DNA from: an uncultured Clostridia bacterium
GTDB taxonomy: Bacteria > Bacillota > Clostridia > Christensenellales > UBA1242
Direction of reading: 5' to 3'
DNA length: 64,000 nt
Assembly (NCBI GenBank): GCA_944383315.1
Contig: CALWPB010000002.1
Location: 17,144 to 81,143, forward strand
The notes beneath the pieces were generated by a model. The model saw nothing but the letters and a program-made list of their open reading frames with translations. It had not been told where the DNA came from and ran no database searches. Shown here piece by piece: positions 3,883 through 61,020 of the stretch. The stretch's first letter is position 1, and each line of letters opens with the position of its first letter. A program made the position numbers and the translations under genes.

Positions 3883-6800
3883 ATGACAAAAAAATGGCTT
3901 GGAAGCTTTTTAATCTTTTTGCTCATAGTAATCGTAGGCATTAGTATTGGTCTGTCTATTTATTATTTCTTGCGTAACAACGAAGTATTTAGCTTCGGCA
4001 CAGGGGATGAACAGTCAATAACACAATATGCCAATGTGGGCGAAACTTTTGACATTGCAGTAACACGTACAAATGCAAGCAGTGATGAATATTCATTGCA
4101 GAGTTTGGACGAGTCTGTCGCTAAATTTAAAGAAAAATTTAAAGACGATGAATCAGGAAATGTAGAAATTTGGAGATTTGAGGCACTTGCAGGCGGTAAT
4201 ACAACAATTCAGTTGATTACCACCAACGAAGCATACAAAAATCTCAACGTATCTATTTACGTTGGTAATGGTACTGCTGAATACCCATTCTATATACGTT
4301 CTTATCAAGATTTATCTGCAATTAGTGAAGATAACGCAAGCGGAATGACTCTTTCTGCTCATTATCAACAGGTTGCTGATATTGATATGAGTGTTGCAAA
4401 TTCTGTATGGAATCCAATTGGAACTGGTTCAACAGCAGGATTTACAGGTTCTTACAATGGTAATAACCACGTAATTTCTAATTTAGAGTTGATGCAAGAA
4501 GGTTCTGTATTCGCAGATGAAAATACTGTTTATGTAGATGGTACAGTTGAAAATGCTGGTTTGTTTGCACGCGTTGGCAATGGTGGAGTGGTGTCTAGAC
4601 TTACAATTTCAAATGCAATAATAGACGGTAATTTTGTTAGTGCTGGTGCAGTGGCTGGTGTGGTAAACGGCGGTCAAATCAACTTTGTAAATGTTGTTGA
4701 TTCAGTTATTAGCAGTAAATATACCGCAACACCTGTTATTGGTGGAATTGCTGGTAAACTTGTTGGCACAAACTACAATGCTCGTATTCAATACTCTGCT
4801 GTTGTAAACTCTACAATTAGCGCTGGTACTGCTGGCGAAATTGGTGGACTTGTTGGTGAAGCAACAGGTGCATACATCAACAACTCTTATGCAATCGTAT
4901 CATTTGCTACTGACAGTGCTAGTAATCCTATAATTGGTGGGATTGTTGGATTATTAGCAAATGGTAGTGGAAATACTGCAGCAAGCACAAGTACAAAGAG
5001 TGCAGTAGTAAACAACTATTCTGTACTTAAAGAATTAAATATAGCAAATACAAATAATTCACGTATAGGTGCTATTGTCGGCTGGAATAGCAACGGTGGC
5101 GCAAATACTCAAGCAGTTCTCAAACCTACACTTGACGAAGGTGAAGAGAATGTAGAAAACAGAATTTTAGGTAACTTCTACCAGAAAGTAACAGGTCTTA
5201 ACTATGAAATCAATGGTTTGGGTGGTTTCAGCGATGTTTCAAATGCATATCTTGCATACGGTCAAACCGCTGAAAATATGAAGAAAAAACCTACTCAAGA
5301 ACAGTTAGACAATATCGCAACTTCTGGTGTAATAGACAGTAGTCTTGCTTATGTAGGTTACGACATTCAAGGTTTGTTCGCTGGTTGGAACTTTGACCTT
5401 GTTTGGAATATTGAACCCGCACAAAATGATGGATATCCTTTCATTAGAGCAGATGCTGTGGCTATTCCTGATGCTATTTATGACGACTTTGATGTAATTT
5501 ATGTTTCAGGCGCGCAAGCATTGTTAAATGCTTTCAATGCAGACTTGCTCGATGATGGAATCTACAACGGCAAGTACCGTATCGATCACGACATCAACCT
5601 TGCAGAACTAAATTCAGAATGGACTCCAATTGGTACAGCAGAAAACCCATTCAATGGTGAATTCGTAATGGTGGCTGACGAAAGTGGTAATATGCCAAAG
5701 ATATTTAACTTAGTAATTACAACTGACAGAGATTACAATGGTTTCTTTGGTGTAACTGGTTCAAATGCGAATATTCAAAACCTTTACATTGAAGGTGTTC
5801 GCATCACCGCTGGTACTTATGTAGGTGCTATCGCTGCATTAAATGGTGGTAGTATCACTGACTGTACTGTGCGCTCAAATACTGATACCGACTTTACAGG
5901 TATTCAAGTGAACGTAAAGGACAGCAGTCAATATATCGGTGGTGTAGTTGGTTACAATAGCAATGGTGCAATATTGCAGGGTAGTAGCGCAATGTTAAAT
6001 GTTCGTATCGCTGGTACAGAGAATAATCATTCAATCAATATCGGTGGTATCGCAGGTTACAGCGCAGCGAATGCAAATATTACAGGTTGTGCTTATGATG
6101 GCGTAATGGTAAATGGTCAACCTTCTTACACAATCGAAGTAAATATTTCTGCTATTAATAGTGAAGTAGTTGCTGGTGGTGTGGTTGGTAACTTGTATTC
6201 AAGATTAAGCAACTCAAGTTTCTCTGGTAAATTGACAGCACCTTCAATCAATGGTGTAATTGTCGGCGGTGTAGTAGGTAAGTATCAAACTTCAACTACA
6301 ACTACACAAAGTGTAATTACCGCGTGCAAGGCAACAGACATTAACTTAACAGGTTACTTGGCTGGTGGTATTATCGGTAAACTTGATTCAACAAGTAATA
6401 ACGGAGTTACAAACGTAATTTCACAATGTTATTCAACTGGTAGTATTTACGGTGGCAGAATAGGTGGTCTTGCTGGTGAAATTACTCGCGGCGGTATCGT
6501 AAACTCCTACACAACTTGCTACCTTAGTGGTAGTGTAATGGGTGGATTTGCAGCAGATATTCTGTTCGCAAACACATCTGACTTTGGTAGAGTTTCTTAC
6601 TGCTTCTCAAATGCTACATTTGACAAATCAGCAGGTAGCGCTTACGCAGAAACTTCTAGTGAAGTGCGCGCACTTAATAACTGGTGGAATGCTGATACCA
6701 AAGTTGGTGGCTATGTAGAACATTGTATCTATAATGGCGACAACGCAAATGGTGCAGAACGTAGATATGGCTCATTTAGAGTTTTAGGTTGGGCTCCAGA

Positions 6801-6921
6801 ACCTGATGACGGAAAGACAAGTGATGGAGACTGCAAACGTATGGAAACTTTCACAAATCGTGGTTTTGACAGCACAATTTGGAACTTTACAAGCAATTCA
6901 TACCCAACATTAAATATATAA
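3883..6921 (+). CDS. large membrane-anchored surface protein with GLUG-motif repeats
   Basis: N-terminal TM anchor (WLGSFLIFLLIVIVGISIGLSIYYF). There are at least 10 G-G-[ILV]-[AV]-G motifs (IGGIAGKLVG, IGGLVGEATG, IGGVVGYNSNG, IGGLAGEITRG..). Two modules each end in W.F..W....YP[FT][IL]. Confidence 0.85.
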   Translation: MTKKWLGSFLIFLLIVIVGISIGLSIYYFLRNNEVFSFGTGDEQSITQYANVGETFDIAVTRTNASSDEYSLQSLDESVAKFKEKFKDDESGNVEIWRFEALAGGNTTIQLITTNEAYKNLNVSIYVGNGTAEYPFYIRSYQDLSAISEDNASGMTLSAHYQQVADIDMSVANSVWNPIGTGSTAGFTGSYNGNNHVISNLELMQEGSVFADENTVYVDGTVENAGLFARVGNGGVVSRLTISNAIIDGNFVSAGAVAGVVNGGQINFVNVVDSVISSKYTATPVIGGIAGKLVGTNYNARIQYSAVVNSTISAGTAGEIGGLVGEATGAYINNSYAIVSFATDSASNPIIGGIVGLLANGSGNTAASTSTKSAVVNNYSVLKELNIANTNNSRIGAIVGWNSNGGANTQAVLKPTLDEGEENVENRILGNFYQKVTGLNYEINGLGGFSDVSNAYLAYGQTAENMKKKPTQEQLDNIATSGVIDSSLAYVGYDIQGLFAGWNFDLVWNIEPAQNDGYPFIRADAVAIPDAIYDDFDVIYVSGAQALLNAFNADLLDDGIYNGKYRIDHDINLAELNSEWTPIGTAENPFNGEFVMVADESGNMPKIFNLVITTDRDYNGFFGVTGSNANIQNLYIEGVRITAGTYVGAIAALNGGSITDCTVRSNTDTDFTGIQVNVKDSSQYIGGVVGYNSNGAILQGSSAMLNVRIAGTENNHSINIGGIAGYSAANANITGCAYDGVMVNGQPSYTIEVNISAINSEVVAGGVVGNLYSRLSNSSFSGKLTAPSINGVIVGGVVGKYQTSTTTTQSVITACKATDINLTGYLAGGIIGKLDSTSNNGVTNVISQCYSTGSIYGGRIGGLAGEITRGGIVNSYTTCYLSGSVMGGFAADILFANTSDFGRVSYCFSNATFDKSAGSAYAETSSEVRALNNWWNADTKVGGYVEHCIYNGDNANGAERRYGSFRVLGWAPEPDDGKTSDGDCKRMETFTNRGFDSTIWNFTSNSYPTLNI

Positions 6922-19954: not shown

Positions 19955-19996
19955 AGCGTCCTCGCATACAATTTAGCATGTGGAGGGCGCTTTTTT
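19955..19996 (+). terminator. uvrC terminator
   Basis: agcgtcctc (19955-19963) pairs with gagggcgct (19983-19991) with one G-U pair, followed by T6. Confidence 0.65.
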
Positions 19997-21023
19997 GTCT
20001 TTAAATCGAAACGAACGCATCTTTTTTGCAGTGTTTACTGTTATTGTGGCTACATTCTTGTTTGTGGCTCCGTTCTTTATACTTCCACGTATTTATGCGG
20101 GTCGTGAAGGCTGGATAAATACAGCACCGCCAAATTCAGTAATACTAGAACTGTGGGAAATAGATACTTTTGAAGGTGGCAGTGCAAGCCGAGCAAAATT
20201 TTTAGAAAAAAATGCATATCTATATCAAACCGAGGTGCTAGACACTTACGTGTTAGTGCGCGCTTTGGGACTAGAACAAGCGCATACTATGCTTTCACAA
20301 GGTTCACGACCAGATATTGTTAGTTTTGGGATAGGCGCGGGTGAGTTAATACAGCCTATAAGTACAGAATTCGGTGAAATAGATGGTGTGCGTGCTGACT
20401 TGCTCTCGGGTGGTTTATATGAGGGTAATCAATACGCAGTACCGTGGTGCTTAGGTGGTTATGTATTATGTGCAAGCAGTGATTTCGGCGAAATTAGCCA
20501 AGATAATTTTTCACAAAAAGGTGAAACCTGCGGAAATAATTTAATTATAACGGGCTGTAACTACAACGTGCCAACACTAAATTTAAACGAAAATTATTCT
20601 CAATATCTTGCGAATGACAAATACACCCAATACGAAGCATATGATGCATATTTACACAATTTAGAAAATAAGGTGCTATTAGGCACACAACGTGATTTTT
20701 ATCGGCTTAATAATAAAGTTGATAATGGAGTAATTAACGCAATGAATTATGAGTACATCGACAATTACACCGATTTAATACAATATATGACAATAACTAC
20801 TGACAATGAAAAATTTATACCTTATGCTCAAAAGTTTATCGAATTTATCACATCTGCTCGTATACAGCAAAAACTTACAAGCATCAAGATGTTTACAGTA
20901 AATGGTGAGTATATATACAATGATGAATATGCCGATTTTGAAAAGGCACTGAATAATAAACTACAAGTGCTAAATGTATTTACCCCAAATGTAAAATTAA
21001 CAGAACTTCAAAATAAAAGGTGA
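19995..21023 (+). CDS. hypothetical membrane-anchored protein; start uncertain (ORF open from 19980)
   Basis: N-terminal TM segment (IFFAVFTVIVATFLFVAPFFIL) followed by a ~300-aa soluble domain. There is no ATG before the TM. The candidates are GTG 19980 or TTG 19995, the latter 7 nt after ggaggg. Confidence 0.55.
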   Translation: MSLNRNERIFFAVFTVIVATFLFVAPFFILPRIYAGREGWINTAPPNSVILELWEIDTFEGGSASRAKFLEKNAYLYQTEVLDTYVLVRALGLEQAHTMLSQGSRPDIVSFGIGAGELIQPISTEFGEIDGVRADLLSGGLYEGNQYAVPWCLGGYVLCASSDFGEISQDNFSQKGETCGNNLIITGCNYNVPTLNLNENYSQYLANDKYTQYEAYDAYLHNLENKVLLGTQRDFYRLNNKVDNGVINAMNYEYIDNYTDLIQYMTITTDNEKFIPYAQKFIEFITSARIQQKLTSIKMFTVNGEYIYNDEYADFEKALNNKLQVLNVFTPNVKLTELQNKR

Positions 21024-28367: not shown

Positions 28368-28559
28368 ATGCCTTTTCAAATTATTTGTATGAAAAACAAA
28401 CAATTTTGGAGTAAGTTTGTTTCAGTTATGTGCGGTTTTGCGCTTGTAATCGCTGCAATGGTGATAGTTTTCCCAACTAATAACACCGATACTAGCCAAA
28501 CTATTCAAACACAAACAACGACAACAACAGCAGAAGCAAGTGATAGCGAGCAACAATAG
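28368..28559 (+). CDS. hypothetical small membrane protein (63 aa, Thr/Gln-rich tail)
   Basis: Strong RBS aaaggagg, one TM segment (FVSVMCGFALVIAAMVIVF), and its own terminator. Confidence 0.5.
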   Translation: MPFQIICMKNKQFWSKFVSVMCGFALVIAAMVIVFPTNNTDTSQTIQTQTTTTTAEASDSEQQ

Positions 28560-29918: not shown

Positions 29919-30692
29919 TTGTCAAAGCAAGATAAGAATTTAGGCATAATGGGAGAACTCATATTCTCAGGAAAATACGGAGTAAAAAAATATTTTATTG
30001 ATATAAATAGTGATACATTATCAAAGCAATTATCAAAGCGCAAAGGCAAATACTATACTTTAAATTGTTCGCGTTTGTTTTGTACTTCGGAACCTGCCCG
30101 AAAATATATCACAAAACAAGTTGTTGAAATTTTTAGCGATTTTTTACAAGATATAAGCGGTACTGTGATGGTTGTTGGACTAGGCAATGCCTTTTTAGTG
30201 GCAGATAGTTTAGGGGCTGCTGTTGTAAAAAATATACTAACGACCCACAATATCCCTGCAGAAATTAGACAAGACTTAGGCGATGTCTGTGCTTTAATTC
30301 CGGGGGTAAGCGGAATAAATGGCTTTGCAACGGCTGATATAGTGCAAGGCGCGGTTAATACTGTTCACCCAAAATGTGTAATAGTTATTGATGCGCTTAC
30401 AGCAAAAGACGCAAGTAGATTGGGGTGCAGTTTCCAATTTAGCAATACAGGGGTATCACCGGGGGCTGGTATAGGGAACTTCAATAAAGACATATCCAGA
30501 GAAACATTAGGTGTGCCTGTTGTTGCTGTTGGTGTGCCTATGATGATTGAGGCTAGTTCTTTTGGTTATGAGCAAGAATACTTTGTTGTTACACCCAAAG
30601 AAATTGATATCTATACCCAAAATTGCGCAAAAATTTTATCACTCGCTATAAACGAAGTATTGCACGGCAAAAAATATAAAAATTATATGTAA
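29919..30692 (+). CDS. gpr: GPR endopeptidase (spore germination protease), compact form
   Basis: VVGLGNAFLVADSLG and VIVIDALTA carry the two catalytic Asp contexts of Gpr. ISNTGVSPGAGIGN and LGVPVVAVGVPMMI are colinear with Bacillus Gpr. The gene is divergent from rpsT, as in B. subtilis. TTG start with RBS aagggg. Confidence 0.8.
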   Translation: MSKQDKNLGIMGELIFSGKYGVKKYFIDINSDTLSKQLSKRKGKYYTLNCSRLFCTSEPARKYITKQVVEIFSDFLQDISGTVMVVGLGNAFLVADSLGAAVVKNILTTHNIPAEIRQDLGDVCALIPGVSGINGFATADIVQGAVNTVHPKCVIVIDALTAKDASRLGCSFQFSNTGVSPGAGIGNFNKDISRETLGVPVVAVGVPMMIEASSFGYEQEYFVVTPKEIDIYTQNCAKILSLAINEVLHGKKYKNYM

Positions 30693-30730
30693 ATTCACTT
30701 TTTATTACAAGCAAATGAACATAAAAAGGG

Positions 30731-30775
30731 GGCAAGTTTTAGTTGTTTTTACTACAAAATTTGCCTTGTTTTCTT
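30731..30775 (+). terminator. probable gpr terminator
   Basis: ggcaagtttt (30731-30740) pairs with aaaatttgcc (30756-30765) with one G-U pair, followed by ttgttttctt. Confidence 0.5.
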
Positions 30776-30923
30776 AATTTTAGTGCAAATTCAGGGGGCA
30801 AATAAATAAATTATATTGAGTATGTAATATTAGTCAAGTCAATAGTATAATAATTACGAAGCCAAGATAATATCTATTTGATATAATTATCTACTTTAAT
30901 ATATCAAACTCAAAGGAGAAATT

Positions 30924-31685
30924 ATGTATTTAGTTATAAGAAAGAATGCCAAAGATTTTTATTACAGCGAATGTTTCGGTATTTTAAAACAAAATATAAA
31001 AGATAAGTTTGTAAAAGAGAAATTTATAGTTTTTAATAGCGATCATACAAATTTAATACTTACAGAAAAGTATTTTTACTATCGTGATTCTCAAGAAGAT
31101 AAAAAAGATTATCCACCCTATGCTGCTAAAAAATGTATTTTAATTGATACTAATAGAAGTAATTGGGTAGAAGCAAATGATAATTTGCAGGGTTATGATT
31201 TTATAGTAAATAATGACACGATTATGAAAAAATTGCTTAATAATGAGCAACTTGACAATAACATAATAACACAAGCAAAAGAAATTAATGAAAAATACGT
31301 GTTAAGTGAATGGCACAACCTTCAAACTGAATATGATATAAATAACATTAACCAATTAACATTTCATTTTCACGATGCTGAGTTAAAGAAGATAATAAAA
31401 GATGAAAATTCTACTACATTCATTTTTGATAATTGGGGTTTCCTTGTGTACTTAAAATGCGACAAAGAGAGTTGTAGATATAATTTAAAAGTTGAAGACA
31501 TATGCTCTAGTGGCGAGATTATTAAGACGGAGAAAGGATTTAAATTTACAGCTTTTGAAGAATTTTATGGCGAAGTAATAAGTTATTACTTTATTGAATC
31601 AAACAGTATGCAGTGGAAAATTGAGTTGTTACCATTGCCAAACAAAACTTGGTCATATATAGAAAACTCAAAAGATTTAAACTAA
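30924..31685 (+). CDS. hypothetical protein, tandem paralogue A (253 aa)
   Basis: RBS aaaggag. The ORF is intact in very AT-rich DNA, and its paralogue is downstream. No motif recognised, and no TM segment or signal peptide. Confidence 0.7.
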   Translation: MYLVIRKNAKDFYYSECFGILKQNIKDKFVKEKFIVFNSDHTNLILTEKYFYYRDSQEDKKDYPPYAAKKCILIDTNRSNWVEANDNLQGYDFIVNNDTIMKKLLNNEQLDNNIITQAKEINEKYVLSEWHNLQTEYDINNINQLTFHFHDAELKKIIKDENSTTFIFDNWGFLVYLKCDKESCRYNLKVEDICSSGEIIKTEKGFKFTAFEEFYGEVISYYFIESNSMQWKIELLPLPNKTWSYIENSKDLN

Positions 31686-31858
31686 CTAAAATTTTATATA
31701 TTTACTAGGATTATCATAACAGAAATTTAGAATAGACATACATTACAAGCTTAATTATTCATTTTAAATAGTGTCTTTAATATTTTTAAAATTCAAAAAT
31801 TTACTTGATTTACATTAAAAAGAGTTCAGTTAATATTAAATTAATAAAGGAGAAAATT

Positions 31859-32617
31859 ATGTATTTAGTTATAAGAAAGAATGCCAAAGATTTTTATTAT
31901 AGCGAATGTTTCGGTATTTTAAAACAAGATATAAAAGATAAGTTTGTAAAAGAGAAATTTATAGTTTTTAATAGCGATCATACAAATTTAATACTTACAG
32001 AAAGAGATTTTTATTTTCGCGTTTCCAAAGAAAGCAAAAGCACTTTCGCTACTAGAAAATGTTTCCTTTTAGACAACGATAAGAGTAAATGGGTAGAAGC
32101 AAATGATAATTTACAGGGCTATGATTTTATAGTAAATAATAATGCAGTAATGAAGAAATTATTAGATAATGAGCAACTTGATAATAGTATAATAGCACAA
32201 GCTAAAAATATTAATGAAAAATTTGTGCTTAGCGAGTGGCACAATGTTGTTACTGATTATGATATTAGGAATTTTGAGCAAGTCGCAAGTAATTTTGATG
32301 ATGCTTATGTTGAGAAAATCATTGATGATAATGAATCAATCGTTTTTGTATTTGATACAACGTGGGATTATCTTGTATATTTAAAATGTGATAAAAGCAG
32401 TTTACAACATAATATTAAAGTTGAAGAAAAAATAATGTGGTTTTGGGGTGAGGTTGATAAAACAGATAAGGGATTTAAATTCACATCCTTTGAAGAATCT
32501 AGAGACGGAAAACATTATGGTTTTATTGAATCAAACAGTATGCAGTGGAAAATTGATTTGTTACCGTTGCCAAACAAAACTTGGTCATATATAGAAAACT
32601 CAAAAGATTTAAACTAA
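31859..32617 (+). CDS. hypothetical protein, tandem paralogue B (252 aa)
   Basis: The ATG at 31859 (MYLVIRKNAKDFYY, identical to copy A) follows RBS aaaggag. The track ORF from TTG 31805 is an upstream extension. Confidence 0.7.
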   Translation: MYLVIRKNAKDFYYSECFGILKQDIKDKFVKEKFIVFNSDHTNLILTERDFYFRVSKESKSTFATRKCFLLDNDKSKWVEANDNLQGYDFIVNNNAVMKKLLDNEQLDNSIIAQAKNINEKFVLSEWHNVVTDYDIRNFEQVASNFDDAYVEKIIDDNESIVFVFDTTWDYLVYLKCDKSSLQHNIKVEEKIMWFWGEVDKTDKGFKFTSFEESRDGKHYGFIESNSMQWKIDLLPLPNKTWSYIENSKDLN

Positions 32618-32836
32618 CTAAATTTATATAAGTTTGCCTCAGGTTTTTCCAATTACTTTGAATAAATAAACATTATAAGTATAATTATTCATTTCTATGC
32701 GATGGCATTAAAAATTAAAAAATTTTTTAATTTAATAGATTTACATCAAAAAGAGTTCAGTTAATATTAATTAATATTGGCCACTCTTTTTATTTTTACT
32801 ATGTCAAAATAGAAAACATATTCATACATTACTACT

Positions 32837-33610
32837 ATGAAAAAAACAAGACAACCCATTTTAGTAATTGATAGCGGAATAGGTGGGCTTACAGTACTCT
32901 ATAATTTAGTACTGCAAAATCCAAATTGTGATTATATCTATTTTGCTGATTACGTAAATTCACCTTATGGTGATAAAAGCGCAACTTTTTTGCGTAAAAA
33001 ACTCATTGAAAATATAAAAACACTAAATAAGAAATACTCTCCACAAGGAGTAGTGCTTGCTTGTAATACCGCAACAGCAGTTGCTGTGGGTGTGCTTAGG
33101 CGAGTTTTCCCGTATGATTTTATAATAGGAACAGAGCCTGCGGTAATGAGTGCAGTGAACGATAACAAGAAAAATATTCTCGTTTTGGCTACTCCTAATA
33201 CTCTTAAATATAACAAATTAATTGCGGAGCAGTGCCATAATGATAATATAAATCTTGAAGTTTTAGCATTGCCAAATCTTGCTACATATATAGAGGACAA
33301 TATAGATAATTTAAAATTACTTAAACCTATTGTGCAAAGTTATTTATCGCCATTTTTGCCACACATTGATTCGATTGTGCTTGGTTGCACGCATTACATT
33401 TATTTAAAGCCTATGCTGCGTGAAATATTAAGTACTGACATAAAAGTTTATGACGGTAATGTAGGAGTTGCTAAACAAACTCATCGTAAAACCAAATCAT
33501 ACAAAAACGGAAGAATTTACGTAATCACGAATGATGCAAGGAAAGGGGCAAATTTAATTTCTGCTTGGAATTTGTTGGCTAAGGAGGGGAGCATAATATG
33601 TGCGGAATAG
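32837..33610 (+). CDS. murI: glutamate racemase
   Basis: VIDSGIGGLTV, ACNTAT and GCTHY catalytic Cys contexts. Confidence 0.93.
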   Translation: MKKTRQPILVIDSGIGGLTVLYNLVLQNPNCDYIYFADYVNSPYGDKSATFLRKKLIENIKTLNKKYSPQGVVLACNTATAVAVGVLRRVFPYDFIIGTEPAVMSAVNDNKKNILVLATPNTLKYNKLIAEQCHNDNINLEVLALPNLATYIEDNIDNLKLLKPIVQSYLSPFLPHIDSIVLGCTHYIYLKPMLREILSTDIKVYDGNVGVAKQTHRKTKSYKNGRIYVITNDARKGANLISAWNLLAKEGSIICAE

Positions 33611-60331: not shown

Positions 60332-60406
60332 GGTGCCATAGCCAAGTGGTAAGGCCAAGGTCTGCAAAACCTTTATTCACCAGTTCGAATCTGGTTGGCA
60401 CCTCCA
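60332..60406 (+). tRNA. tRNA-Cys (GCA), CCA encoded
   Basis: Acceptor stem ggtgcca/tggcacc, anticodon arm aaggt-CTGCAAA-acctt and T arm accag-ttcgaat-ctggt. Confidence 0.93.
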
Positions 60407-60409
60407 TTT

Positions 60410-60496
60410 GCCGAAGTGGCGGAATTGGCAGACGCAAGGGACTTAAAATCCCTCGAGAGCAATCTCGTACCGGTTCGAGTCCGGTCTTCGGCACCA
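60410..60496 (+). tRNA. tRNA-Leu (UAA), long variable arm, CCA encoded
   Basis: Acceptor stem gccgaag/cttcggc, anticodon arm aggga-CTTAAAA-tccct, variable arm cgagagcaatctcg and T arm ccggt-tcgagtc-cgg. Confidence 0.93.
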
Positions 60497-60637
60497 ATCA
60501 CAGTTTCGGCTGTTTTTTTGTTTTTTAGGGATTTTAAGCCCCTGCGGGACTTAACTCTGTTGAGCCAGACCGCAGCGAAGCTGCTCCCAGCTTTGGCTAA
60601 AAACAGCACGCCTGTGCTATTTTCTTAACGCGTCGCC

Positions 60638-60690
60638 CCCTCGAGAGCAATCTCGTACCGGTTCGAGTCCGGTCTTCGGCACCAATCACA
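60638..60690 (+). repeat. perfect 53-nt duplicate of the 3' part of tRNA-Leu(UAA) plus 7 nt of trailer
   Basis: Identical to 60450-60502, running from the 3' strand of the anticodon stem through CCA and aatcaca. It lacks any 5' half, so it is not a functional tRNA. Confidence 0.95.
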
Positions 60691-60716
60691 CCTTTAAAGT
60701 TTAAAGGTGTTTTTTT
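60689..60716 (+). terminator. strong terminator after the partial tRNA-Leu copy
   Basis: cacctttaa-agt-ttaaaggtg followed by T7. Confidence 0.9.
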
Positions 60717-60800
60717 AAACCATTTATTATAAAAATATAACTTAATAGGTTTTAAAACTAAAAATTTTTGAAATTTTTTTGATTTTTTTATAAAAAACGC

Positions 60801-60829
60801 TTGCAATGATTGAAAATATTTGTTATTAT
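60801..60829 (+). promoter_or_regulatory. promoter for the tRNA-Val/Gly unit
   Basis: TTGCAA (60801-60806), 17-nt spacer ending in TGT, TATTAT (60824-60829). Confidence 0.55.
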
Positions 60830-60861
60830 ATATTCGTTCACTCGTAAGAGTTGAACACCTT

Positions 60862-60937
60862 GGGAGCTTAGCTCAGTTGGTAGAGCATCTGCCTTACAAG
60901 CAGAGGGTCACAGGTTCGAGTCCTGTAGCTCCCACCA
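60862..60937 (+). tRNA. tRNA-Val (UAC), CCA encoded
   Basis: Acceptor stem gggagct/agctccc, anticodon arm tctgc-CTTACAA-gcaga and T loop ggttcgagtcc. Confidence 0.93.
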
Positions 60938-60944
60938 TTATTAT

Positions 60945-61020
60945 GCGGGAGTAGCTCAGTTGGTAGAGCGTTACCTTGCCAAGGTAAATGTCGCGGGTTC
61001 GAGTCCCGTCTCCCGCTCCA
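60945..61020 (+). tRNA. tRNA-Gly (GCC), CCA encoded
   Basis: Acceptor stem gcgggag/ctcccgc, anticodon arm ttacc-TTGCCAA-ggtaa and T loop ggttcgagtcc. Confidence 0.93.

Follow-up and report, generated by a model that had tools for sequence, protein, structure and literature searches.

Evidence for an old tandem duplicate patchily homogenised by gene conversion at the gpr-murI locus of uncultured Clostridia

Results and discussion

Within a 64-kb stretch of contig CALWPB010000002.1, from an uncultured gut Clostridia bacterium (the whole stretch is called the window hereafter), two adjacent copies of an uncharacterised gene form a 935-bp head-to-tail duplicate between gpr and murI. Copy A (30924-31685, 253 aa) has what we term an A-type core and copy B (31859-32617, 252 aa) a B-type core; both lie on the + strand, as do the features of the gpr-murI region described below, and their start codons are spaced by 935 bp. 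The ends of the two copies are near-identical and their cores are diverged. We find the locus to be a clear but ordinary case of concerted evolution, with no sign of the immunity cassette array that an earlier note on this DNA had suggested. As an explanation of the whole pattern we consider it likely that an old tandem duplicate has been homogenised in patches by gene conversion and has lost single genes by unequal exchange. That the near-identical ends are recent gene-conversion tracts, with a synonymous divergence (dS) of 0.04-0.09, is well supported by the sequence comparisons that follow.

Near-identical ends around a diverged core

The 5' tract in A (30919-31068) is 150 nt long and mismatches its partner in B (31854-32003) only at 30965 and 30993, while the 3' tract in A (31590-31690) is 101 nt long and mismatches its partner in B (32522-32622) at 31625 and 31634. 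These comparisons confirm two mismatches at each end, as first noted. A 150-nt tract with 2 mismatches was reached in 0 of 10000 column shuffles, whose longest tract was 65 nt. The 3' tract extends 5 nt beyond the stop codon; similarity past the stop codons had been noted before, and it is perfect over these 5 nt but patchy in the spacers that follow, at about 60-70% identity. Between the tracts the two genes are about 70% identical overall, with nucleotide identity varying from 50 to 80% along the core and three small indels, in agreement with the earlier description of a heavily diverged centre.

Synonymous sites separate the ends from the core most clearly. Between window A and window B, dS is 0.043 at the 5' end, 1.19 in the core and 0.086 at the 3' end, whereas the same comparison in the sister species L005 gives 1.49, 0.84 and 1.07. 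An account without recombination would hold that strong purifying selection on the protein, the RNA or a regulatory signal keeps the ends alike while the core drifts. It can draw on the ratio of nonsynonymous to synonymous divergence (ω) between A and B of L005, which is 0.07 at the 5' end and 0.06 at the 3' end against 0.36 in the core, and on the conservation of N-terminal residues across the wide family. However, selection on the protein does not preserve synonymous sites, and dS at the ends is 0.04-0.09 in the window against 1.1-1.5 in L005; because synonymous divergence collapses inside the tracts, protein-level selection is excluded as their cause. Moreover, a conspecific allele that matches the core exactly departs at the 5' end, where it also has an indel, the 5' haplotypes of A and B co-vary across strains, and the 3' tract passes the stop codon. 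The dS contrast effectively refutes this account, which we regard as very improbable. Everywhere, constraint on the protein is strongest at its ends, and in the window lineage these have in addition become homogenised in their DNA.

Constant ends and a variable core are also not a fixed design of this gene pair, as the first description implied, since L005 presents the reverse, with diverged ends and a homogenised middle. There, nt 241-330 (L005:2566-2655 against L005:3419-3508) are 92-95% identical between A and B, compared with 80-87% in the window, and this mid-gene tract is an independent conversion event in another segment. With the homogenised tract mid-gene in one species and at the ends in the other, we conclude that tract position is lineage-specific.

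The conspecific allele is found in L006; like all relatives of the locus discussed here, it comes from a metagenome assembly. Its A copy shows 0 differences from window A in 546 core sites, but over the first 145 nt the identity falls to 93%, with a dS of 0.255 and a 15-nt indel. The long 5' form, which carries the inserted peptide IKDKFVKEKF, is B-type in L005 (P0004) and is missing from the A-type orthologues P0001, P0002 and P0005, which is most simply explained if sequence of B replaced the 5' end of A in the window strain. Conversion at this end would thus have run from B to A, with 31854-32003 as the probable donor.

Strain-specific 5' haplotypes shared by A and B alleles point to repeated conversion. 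The private variants D9, V20 and I31 are common to P0156 (A) and P0145 (B), an 'IF' variant is common to P0154 (A) and P0147 (B), and the short 5' form is common to P0001 and P0155 (A) and to P0141, P0142 and P0144 (B), of which P0141 is carried by at least two contigs, including L020. In the 5' segment A and B are 0.99 identical, against 0.81-0.93 between orthologues, so the paralogues are closer to each other than to their orthologues within a discrete tract of above-chance length, while the core sorts by orthologue. The phylogenies of end and core disagree accordingly. Gene conversion between the copies, which the earlier note had proposed, is thus borne out by the drop in dS at the ends, by the conflict between end and core phylogenies and by the 5' haplotypes common to A and B.

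Age of the duplication

Among 5.8 billion proteins, the close family forms six clusters at 90% identity. On all close-family contigs long enough to include a flanking gene (L001-L008), the copies adjoin gpr, murI or both, while L009 stops short of both flanks. The A-type proteins are window A, P0001, P0002 and P0005, and the B-type proteins are window B (identical to P0003), P0004 and P0006. Across three lineages, core nucleotide identity is 0.83-1.00 between A-type copies and 0.74-0.83 between B-type copies, but 0.67-0.72 between A and B. Given that both types occur in three two-copy lineages, the duplication is older than the split of these lineages. The outgroup L010, from the metagenome-assembled genome (MAG) 'uncultured Clostridia bacterium BRZ_PQ bin18', is the one locus recovered from GTDB species representatives; it has a single copy, with 37-41% amino acid identity, at the same site between gpr and murI, from which it follows that the gene is ancestral there. 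Judged from these sequences, the tandem duplication is old.

The pattern in the window, taken by itself, would also be compatible with a recent duplication whose identical ends are residual and whose core has been accelerated or positively selected, and the ends of the repeat unit, including a 33-nt element described below, are still recognisable. Against a young duplication, both L005 and the L007/L008/L009 lineage have orthologues of A and of B whose cores group by type and not by genome; the A-B core dS of 1.19 is saturated, comparable with the divergence between species; and the ends in L005 are as diverged as its core. We consider a young duplication extremely improbable, and retain the old duplicate with recent conversion tracts.

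Genomic setting

The placement of the 935-bp pair, with its coordinates and the identities of its flanks, holds as first described. Upstream lies gpr (29919-30692; TIGR01441, 8e-61), encoding the GPR endopeptidase, a spore germination protease that is found as Peptidase_A25 in all syntenic loci, and downstream lies murI (32837-33610; TIGR00067, 3e-51), encoding glutamate racemase. Four other metagenome assemblies (L001-L004) are 100% identical to the window over 30600-32900, and the two-copy structure is therefore no assembly artefact. A strong ribosome-binding site (RBS), AGGAG, stands ahead of each copy (30914-30918 for A and 31848-31852 for B). When all open reading frames (ORFs) of the window and of L001-L021 were searched with a hidden Markov model (HMM) of the family, no third or degenerate copy was found. 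These are the 21 distinct related loci, L022 being the L018 contig again.

The block is AT-rich, as previously observed, with a G+C content (GC) of 0.21-0.29 inside it and 0.33-0.45 in the neighbouring genes, mostly because the encoded proteins are rich in K, N, I, D and E. At third codon positions the GC of A and B (GC3), 0.22-0.24, is close to the 0.25-0.32 of the neighbours, and in L010 the single-copy orthologue shares the GC of its own neighbours, so that the low GC is no evidence of foreign origin. We considered such an origin and rejected it on these two grounds and on the synteny with the single-copy outgroup. The remainder of the window is ordinary core chromosome, encoding SpoIIE, TilS, UvrC, DnaE, PFK, YdjC, RpsT, Gpr, MurI, GlmS and Lon, as well as the housekeeping proteins EngB, RecD2-like, SecA, PrfB, TsaD, FolA, PlsX, FtsY and LepA.

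Copy-number variants

Two assemblies, L020 (a 53-kb scaffold) and L021 (a contig from a different study), have one gene each between gpr and murI. In both, the region upstream of A, at 97-100% identity with the window, leads into a short A-type 5' end, after which come a B core, at 95-100% identity with window B, and the spacer found downstream of B. An analogous single-gene arrangement is present in L007, of the third lineage, whereas L006 joins an A core to the downstream-of-B spacer, its contig stopping inside the 33-nt element. The joints in L020, L021, L007 and L006, all short-read metagenome assemblies, are those expected from crossover in the common segments, and the single-gene alleles are plausibly products of unequal crossover in the common 5' or 3' segments. 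The assemblies concerned are ERZ28614365 for L020, ERZ16268129 for L021, ERZ17292903 for L007 and ERZ24773492 for L006. Real deletions are favoured by the fact that the same assembly pipelines (ONAT22 and BRZ sample series) recovered both copies on five occasions. Copy number never exceeds two in any locus, and two stable types, A and B, recur in three species. Of the expansion and contraction by unequal crossover envisaged in the earlier note, contraction is therefore in keeping with the joints of the single-gene alleles, as seen in metagenome assemblies; surveying the gpr-murI site as that note advised gave one- and two-copy forms in relatives and never more than two copies.

Two contigs of the third lineage (L008:566-1316 and L009:94-844) contain an A-type copy with the same frameshift, which splits it into 179 aa and 87 aa, followed by the start of B. 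The recurrence of the frameshift in contigs from different samples suggests that this A copy is a real pseudogene; the B-type copy in L007 is intact. A further protein in the representative library, P0009 (947 aa; compare L009:988-1107), begins with about 80 residues of the third-lineage B-type N-terminus, fused in frame to choline-binding-like repeats and GLUG motifs. It is probably an assembly chimera at a repeated locus, although a real fusion is possible.

Spacers, promoters and terminator

A 33-nt element lies in the A-B spacer (31807-31839) and recurs after B (32738-32770) with one mismatch, at 31816. It contains a promoter-like core, TTTACA-16-TAATAT, which in the A-B spacer spans 31809-31836, 22 nt before the ATG of B, and at the second occurrence spans 32740-32767, with the element 67 nt upstream of the ATG of murI. 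The pattern has 2 sites in the 64 kb, against 0.09 expected. Its hexamers are invariant in three species (window, L005 and L008/L009) and the 16-nt spacer between them varies, which is the basis for reading the element as a promoter; in the same comparison, about 70 nt preceding B in the A-B spacer are conserved across three species whose synonymous sites are saturated. We infer that the element is a putative sigma-A-type promoter core and that its internal copy may serve as the promoter of B.

The array ends in a hairpin (32748-32791) followed by UUUUUAUUUUU as a U-run, the whole spanning 32748-32799. With a folding energy of -15.4 kcal/mol and a z-score of -3.0, the hairpin was matched by 0 of 200 shuffles, and the same hairpin sequence in L020 has a z-score of -3.8. 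Given this stable hairpin and the U-run at the end of the unit, we predict that 32748-32799 is an intrinsic terminator. Hairpins with U-runs also stand at the equivalent place before murI in L010 and L007, with different sequences. The right half of the terminal 33-nt element forms the 5' arm of the terminator hairpin, whereas the copy in the A-B spacer, which lacks the 3' arm, forms no hairpin (-3.2 kcal/mol, z +1.1). It follows that the repeat unit ended inside the terminator loop.

The terminal element is accordingly the tail of the second repeat unit and not the remnant of a third gene. The earlier note had taken it for a truncated third leader with no gene following; the repetition with one mismatch stands, but murI starts 67 nt downstream, and what had been read as a vestige combines a terminator arm with a promoter-like site before murI. 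The single-gene alleles L020 and L021 have the element once, before murI. Since L005 retains only the left part of its terminal element, the 32/33 identity of the two elements in the window species is probably another small homogenised patch.

Upstream of A, a TATAAT box (30846-30851) is likely to be the -10 element of A's own promoter, judging from block conservation in relatives: the window shares the conserved block TAGTATAATA with L005 and L008, and L010 has TGTTATAAT. A consensus scan of the + strand did not call this box because it has no good -35. Between the box and the RBS of A, an imperfect palindrome, AGATAAT...ATTATCT, can be read from the sequence (30865-30892); both of its arms are conserved in L005 and L008, and its right arm in L010. 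It may be an operator or a hairpin of the 5' untranslated region. A second promoter-like site, TTGAAT-16-TATAAT (32658-32685), with 10 of 12 consensus matches, lies in the B-murI spacer upstream of the terminator hairpin. The block TTGAATAAATAAACAT..TATAATTATTCA that contains it is conserved in the B-murI spacer of L005 and in the A-B spacer of L009, and is degenerate in the A-B spacer of the window. If this site were active, its transcript would enter the hairpin, and an attenuator-type leader for murI is conceivable.

The gpr-A spacer contains two conserved G-rich blocks (window 30725-30815), AAAAAGGGGGC and AGGGGGCAAATAAATAAATTA, which are common to L005 and L008. By eye, AAAAAGGGGGC is part of a hairpin with a T-run that resembles a terminator of gpr. 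Neither block has an Rfam match, and an Rfam scan of the window returned only transfer RNAs (tRNAs), far from the locus.

The protein family

A and B are acidic (isoelectric point about 5.1) and hydrophilic, with a maximum 19-residue Kyte-Doolittle mean of 0.5-0.7, a value so low that no membrane segment or signal peptide is expected; on this point the earlier note was right. An exhaustive profile search at E<=1e-3 extended the family to 111 representatives, most of them 220-250 aa long; a source is named for few of them, and these are from MAGs of uncultured Clostridia, Candidatus Borkfalkia among them. The family was absent from the plasmid, phage and IMG/VR collections searched, and two scans of Joint Genome Institute (JGI) metagenomes yielded nothing beyond one already known contig.

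The AlphaFold model built from a 61-sequence alignment is confident (predicted local distance difference test score, pLDDT, 95.5; predicted template modelling score, pTM, 0.90). Residues 1-91 form a beta-rich N-terminal domain, residues 92-145 a helical linker and residues 152-235 an antiparallel sheet at the C-terminus. Compared by Foldseek with the PDB and BFVD, this model has no structural neighbour at E<=1e-3, all template modelling (TM) scores being below 0.25, and a sequence profile search of the PDB gave only 40-residue matches at chance level. Scans of A, B and 61 family members against Pfam, NCBIfam, PADLOC and PHROGs found no family above threshold; at E<=0.01, 0 of the 61 match PADLOC, and 0 of the 61 match a Pfam Imm family. 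The profile and structure searches that had been recommended thus reveal no housekeeping or other family above threshold, and the statement that the proteins contain no recognisable motif stands.

Two curated families give any signal at all. MC4 (PF20290, ABC-3C middle component 4) matches 3 of the 61 wider-family members below threshold. The MC4 scores are 18.9 and 13.5 bits against a cut-off of 28.1, with an E of 0.002. The matching region is the K/E/N-rich helical linker, which also matches ATP synthase subunit b, and among the neighbours in the window and the 21 distinct related loci there is no ABC ATPase or effector partner gene. We rejected this lead as a sub-threshold match to a compositionally biased linker whose operon partners are absent. 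DUF4085 (PF13315) matches 2 of the 61, both distant members (best E 7.3e-6), with P0020 below the cut-off at 6e-4, and matches neither A nor B. Literature searches for DUF4085, PF13315 and PF20290 found no papers.

Across the wide family, Tyr13, Gly90, His150 and Asp151 are nearly invariant. The histidine belongs to a motif, FHDA, that is kept in the A copies and in the single-copy outgroup, whereas the B copies have FDDA or FYDA; in the window, A keeps FHDA and B has FDDA. The His150 codon is at 31371-31373 in A, the aligned codon of B is at about 32300, and all B-type copies have Asp or Tyr in place of His. From these sequences, loss of the histidine in B hints at a functional asymmetry between the paralogues. 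Our best guess is a non-essential cytoplasmic accessory protein with a His-Asp site kept in A and lost in B, and such a distribution of the site would speak for sub-functionalisation of the pair and not for a set of diversifying immunity genes.

One could go further and see in the family a new two-domain fold from uncultured Clostridia that has a conserved Tyr/Gly/His-Asp site and works on its own as a conflict or stress module. In this lineage, A and B might then be an enzyme and pseudo-enzyme or a sensor and its partner, and continuing conversion would keep their ends identical because these form a common interface. Some members would be fused to a membrane anchor, and some stand beside toxin-antitoxin (TA) or Imm genes. 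We regard this proposal as unlikely.

Three longer members, P0044, P0127 and P0050 (461-473 aa; Candidatus Borkfalkia faecipullorum and relatives), are extended at the C-terminus by about 230 aa, a stretch that includes hydrophobic segments, may end in a PH-like region and has no Pfam match; one of their clusters comprises 66 member sequences.

Selection and the settings of relatives

In the core, ω (Nei-Gojobori) is 0.13-0.15 between orthologues and 0.21-0.36 between paralogues. Both genes are under purifying selection, with no gene-wide positive selection, and the orthologue values of 0.12-0.15 together with the strong RBSs indicate that both are functional. They are nevertheless the fastest-evolving genes at the locus: window and L005 are 80-81% identical in A and B against 89-100% in neighbouring genes, and window and L010 are 39-41% identical in A and B against 61-96% in neighbours.

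The pair had been interpreted as an immunity or conflict cassette array, in which cores diversify under antagonistic selection while constant ends permit cassette exchange and the expansion and contraction of the array. In favour of this reading, A and B evolve rapidly, copy number appears polymorphic, and several distant relatives do reside in variable islands: L018 holds one in an island with AbiEi/AbiEii and a gene with an Imm26 domain, in L017 one follows a Fic gene, and in L015 one starts 16 nt after a gene for an AAA_33/zeta-like kinase. The sub-threshold MC4 match and a weak Foldseek match to the immunity protein PIM7 (E 0.016, TM 0.37) point the same way. The latter was obtained with a first, poor model from 7 sequences (pLDDT 56) and was lost with the confident model, and we rejected it; MC4, at 18.9 against its cut-off of 28.1, falls in the linker that also matches ATP synthase subunit b. 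Apparent array neighbours in L018 (230, 244 and 211 aa) are not paralogues.

Set against the immunity reading are, first, the ω values, which are purifying throughout, and a core divergence that is old, with saturated dS, and not accelerated, so that the diversification of the core supposed in the earlier note falls away. Second, the copies number at most two, A and B types are stable in three species, and the mosaic pattern differs between species. Third, the 64-kb window contains no toxin, defence system, integrase, transposase or mobile gene; synteny among housekeeping genes is stable; and the 61 family members have no PADLOC, Imm-family or PHROG match. Finally, another relative sits inside a thyA-folA operon. 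Guilt by association from the relatives' settings is weak and inconsistent, and although a conflict role for the wider family is possible, we judge it unlikely that A and B form an immunity array and do not uphold that claim.

The thyA-folA relative, P0067 (243 aa), is a distant member found in L011-L013 (e.g. L012:7157-9207, GCA_017473605.1). It starts 13 nt after thyA and overlaps the start of folA by 29 nt, a spacing from which it appears to be co-transcribed with the thymidylate synthesis genes.

A proposed history of the locus

We hypothesize that the gene of a soluble, acidic protein of about 30 kDa has stood between gpr and murI since before the split from the relative that still has one copy. 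A unit comprising the RBS, the gene and about 155 nt of downstream spacer, ending inside the loop of the gene's terminator hairpin, would then have been duplicated. The internal 33-nt element would have been carried along and would now drive B, while the terminal one shares sequence with the 5' arm of the terminator upstream of murI. Both copies would have remained functional and diverged into the A-type and B-type orthologue groups, their residual homology permitting RecA-type recombination. In the window strain, a recent non-reciprocal exchange may have replaced the first 150 nt of A by those of B, importing the 15-nt insertion, and a second exchange probably made the last 101 nt alike. The single-gene derivatives of other strains would stem from reciprocal unequal exchange within these segments.

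Several observations weigh against parts of this history. The direction of conversion rests on parsimony among few sequences. An assembler walking through a common 5' or 3' segment could create single-gene contigs artificially, and the L006 contig breaks off within the 33-nt element, which is where a repeat boundary would stop it. The match of the 33-nt element to the promoter consensus is only 9/12, and the consensus terminator scan did not call the hairpin at 32748-32791, because its stem is AU-rich with an inner loop. Distant relatives also occur in variable islands near AbiEi/AbiEii with Imm26, Fic or zeta-like kinase genes.

Comparison with known systems

Among bacterial paralogues, the classic examples of concerted evolution by gene conversion are tufA/tufB and the rRNA operons. 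The A/B pair resembles these in that the paralogues are more alike than orthologues over discrete tracts, dS drops inside the tracts, tract and flank phylogenies conflict, and the same homology would also support deletion by unequal exchange. It departs from them in that conversion is partial and patchy, affecting the ends in one species and the middle of the gene in another, so that A and B stay distinct types and are not fully homogenised, and in that the family is uncharacterised. Gene-conversion cases in prokaryotic paralogues have been surveyed, and concerted evolution is an already known phenomenon (PMC6053082); in Mycobacterium tuberculosis, a preprint describes gene conversion as a driver of diversity hotspots and a source of locus-level diversity (PMC13061034).

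Like the tandem Imm genes of polymorphic toxin systems, which are known from the literature, A and B are small, soluble, cytoplasmic, tandem, lineage-restricted and fast-evolving, and some of their distant relatives lie near TA or Imm genes. Unlike those arrays, they have no nearby toxin gene and no Imm-family match, exist as two stable orthologous types, are under purifying selection and lie between housekeeping genes with conserved synteny. As for DUF4085 and MC4, the only curated families with any signal in the A/B family, the pair has no DUF4085 match, its MC4 match is below the cut-off in a biased linker, and it has no ABC ATPase or effector gene as a neighbour; nor is a biochemical function known for either family that one could carry over to A or B.

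What novelty remains is in the protein family: it lacks annotated relatives, and the PDB and BFVD hold no structural neighbour of it. With about 110 representatives and a confident model, it is a reasonable, if not urgent, target for structural and functional work. The locus itself offers a compact natural example of partial concerted evolution in which two types persist while short tracts are repeatedly exchanged, and in which probable donor, recipient and unconverted allele are all visible among wild strains, together with putative single-gene deletion products. It may also illustrate how a tandem duplication can give the downstream copy a ready-made promoter, here because the repeat unit ended inside a putative combined terminator/promoter region. 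For annotation, we stress that "conserved ends and a variable core" are by themselves no sign of a conflict cassette.

Other features of the window

Elsewhere in the window, four tRNA genes are clustered at 60332-61017. Two long ORFs, at 3883-6921 (1012 aa) and 19980-21023 (347 aa), have no Pfam match at 1e-5 amid well-annotated surroundings. A 63-aa ORF at 28368-28559, to which no family is assigned, encodes one hydrophobic segment and a Thr/Gln-rich tail, and gene calls in L002, L004, L006 and L020 include it at the equivalent position.

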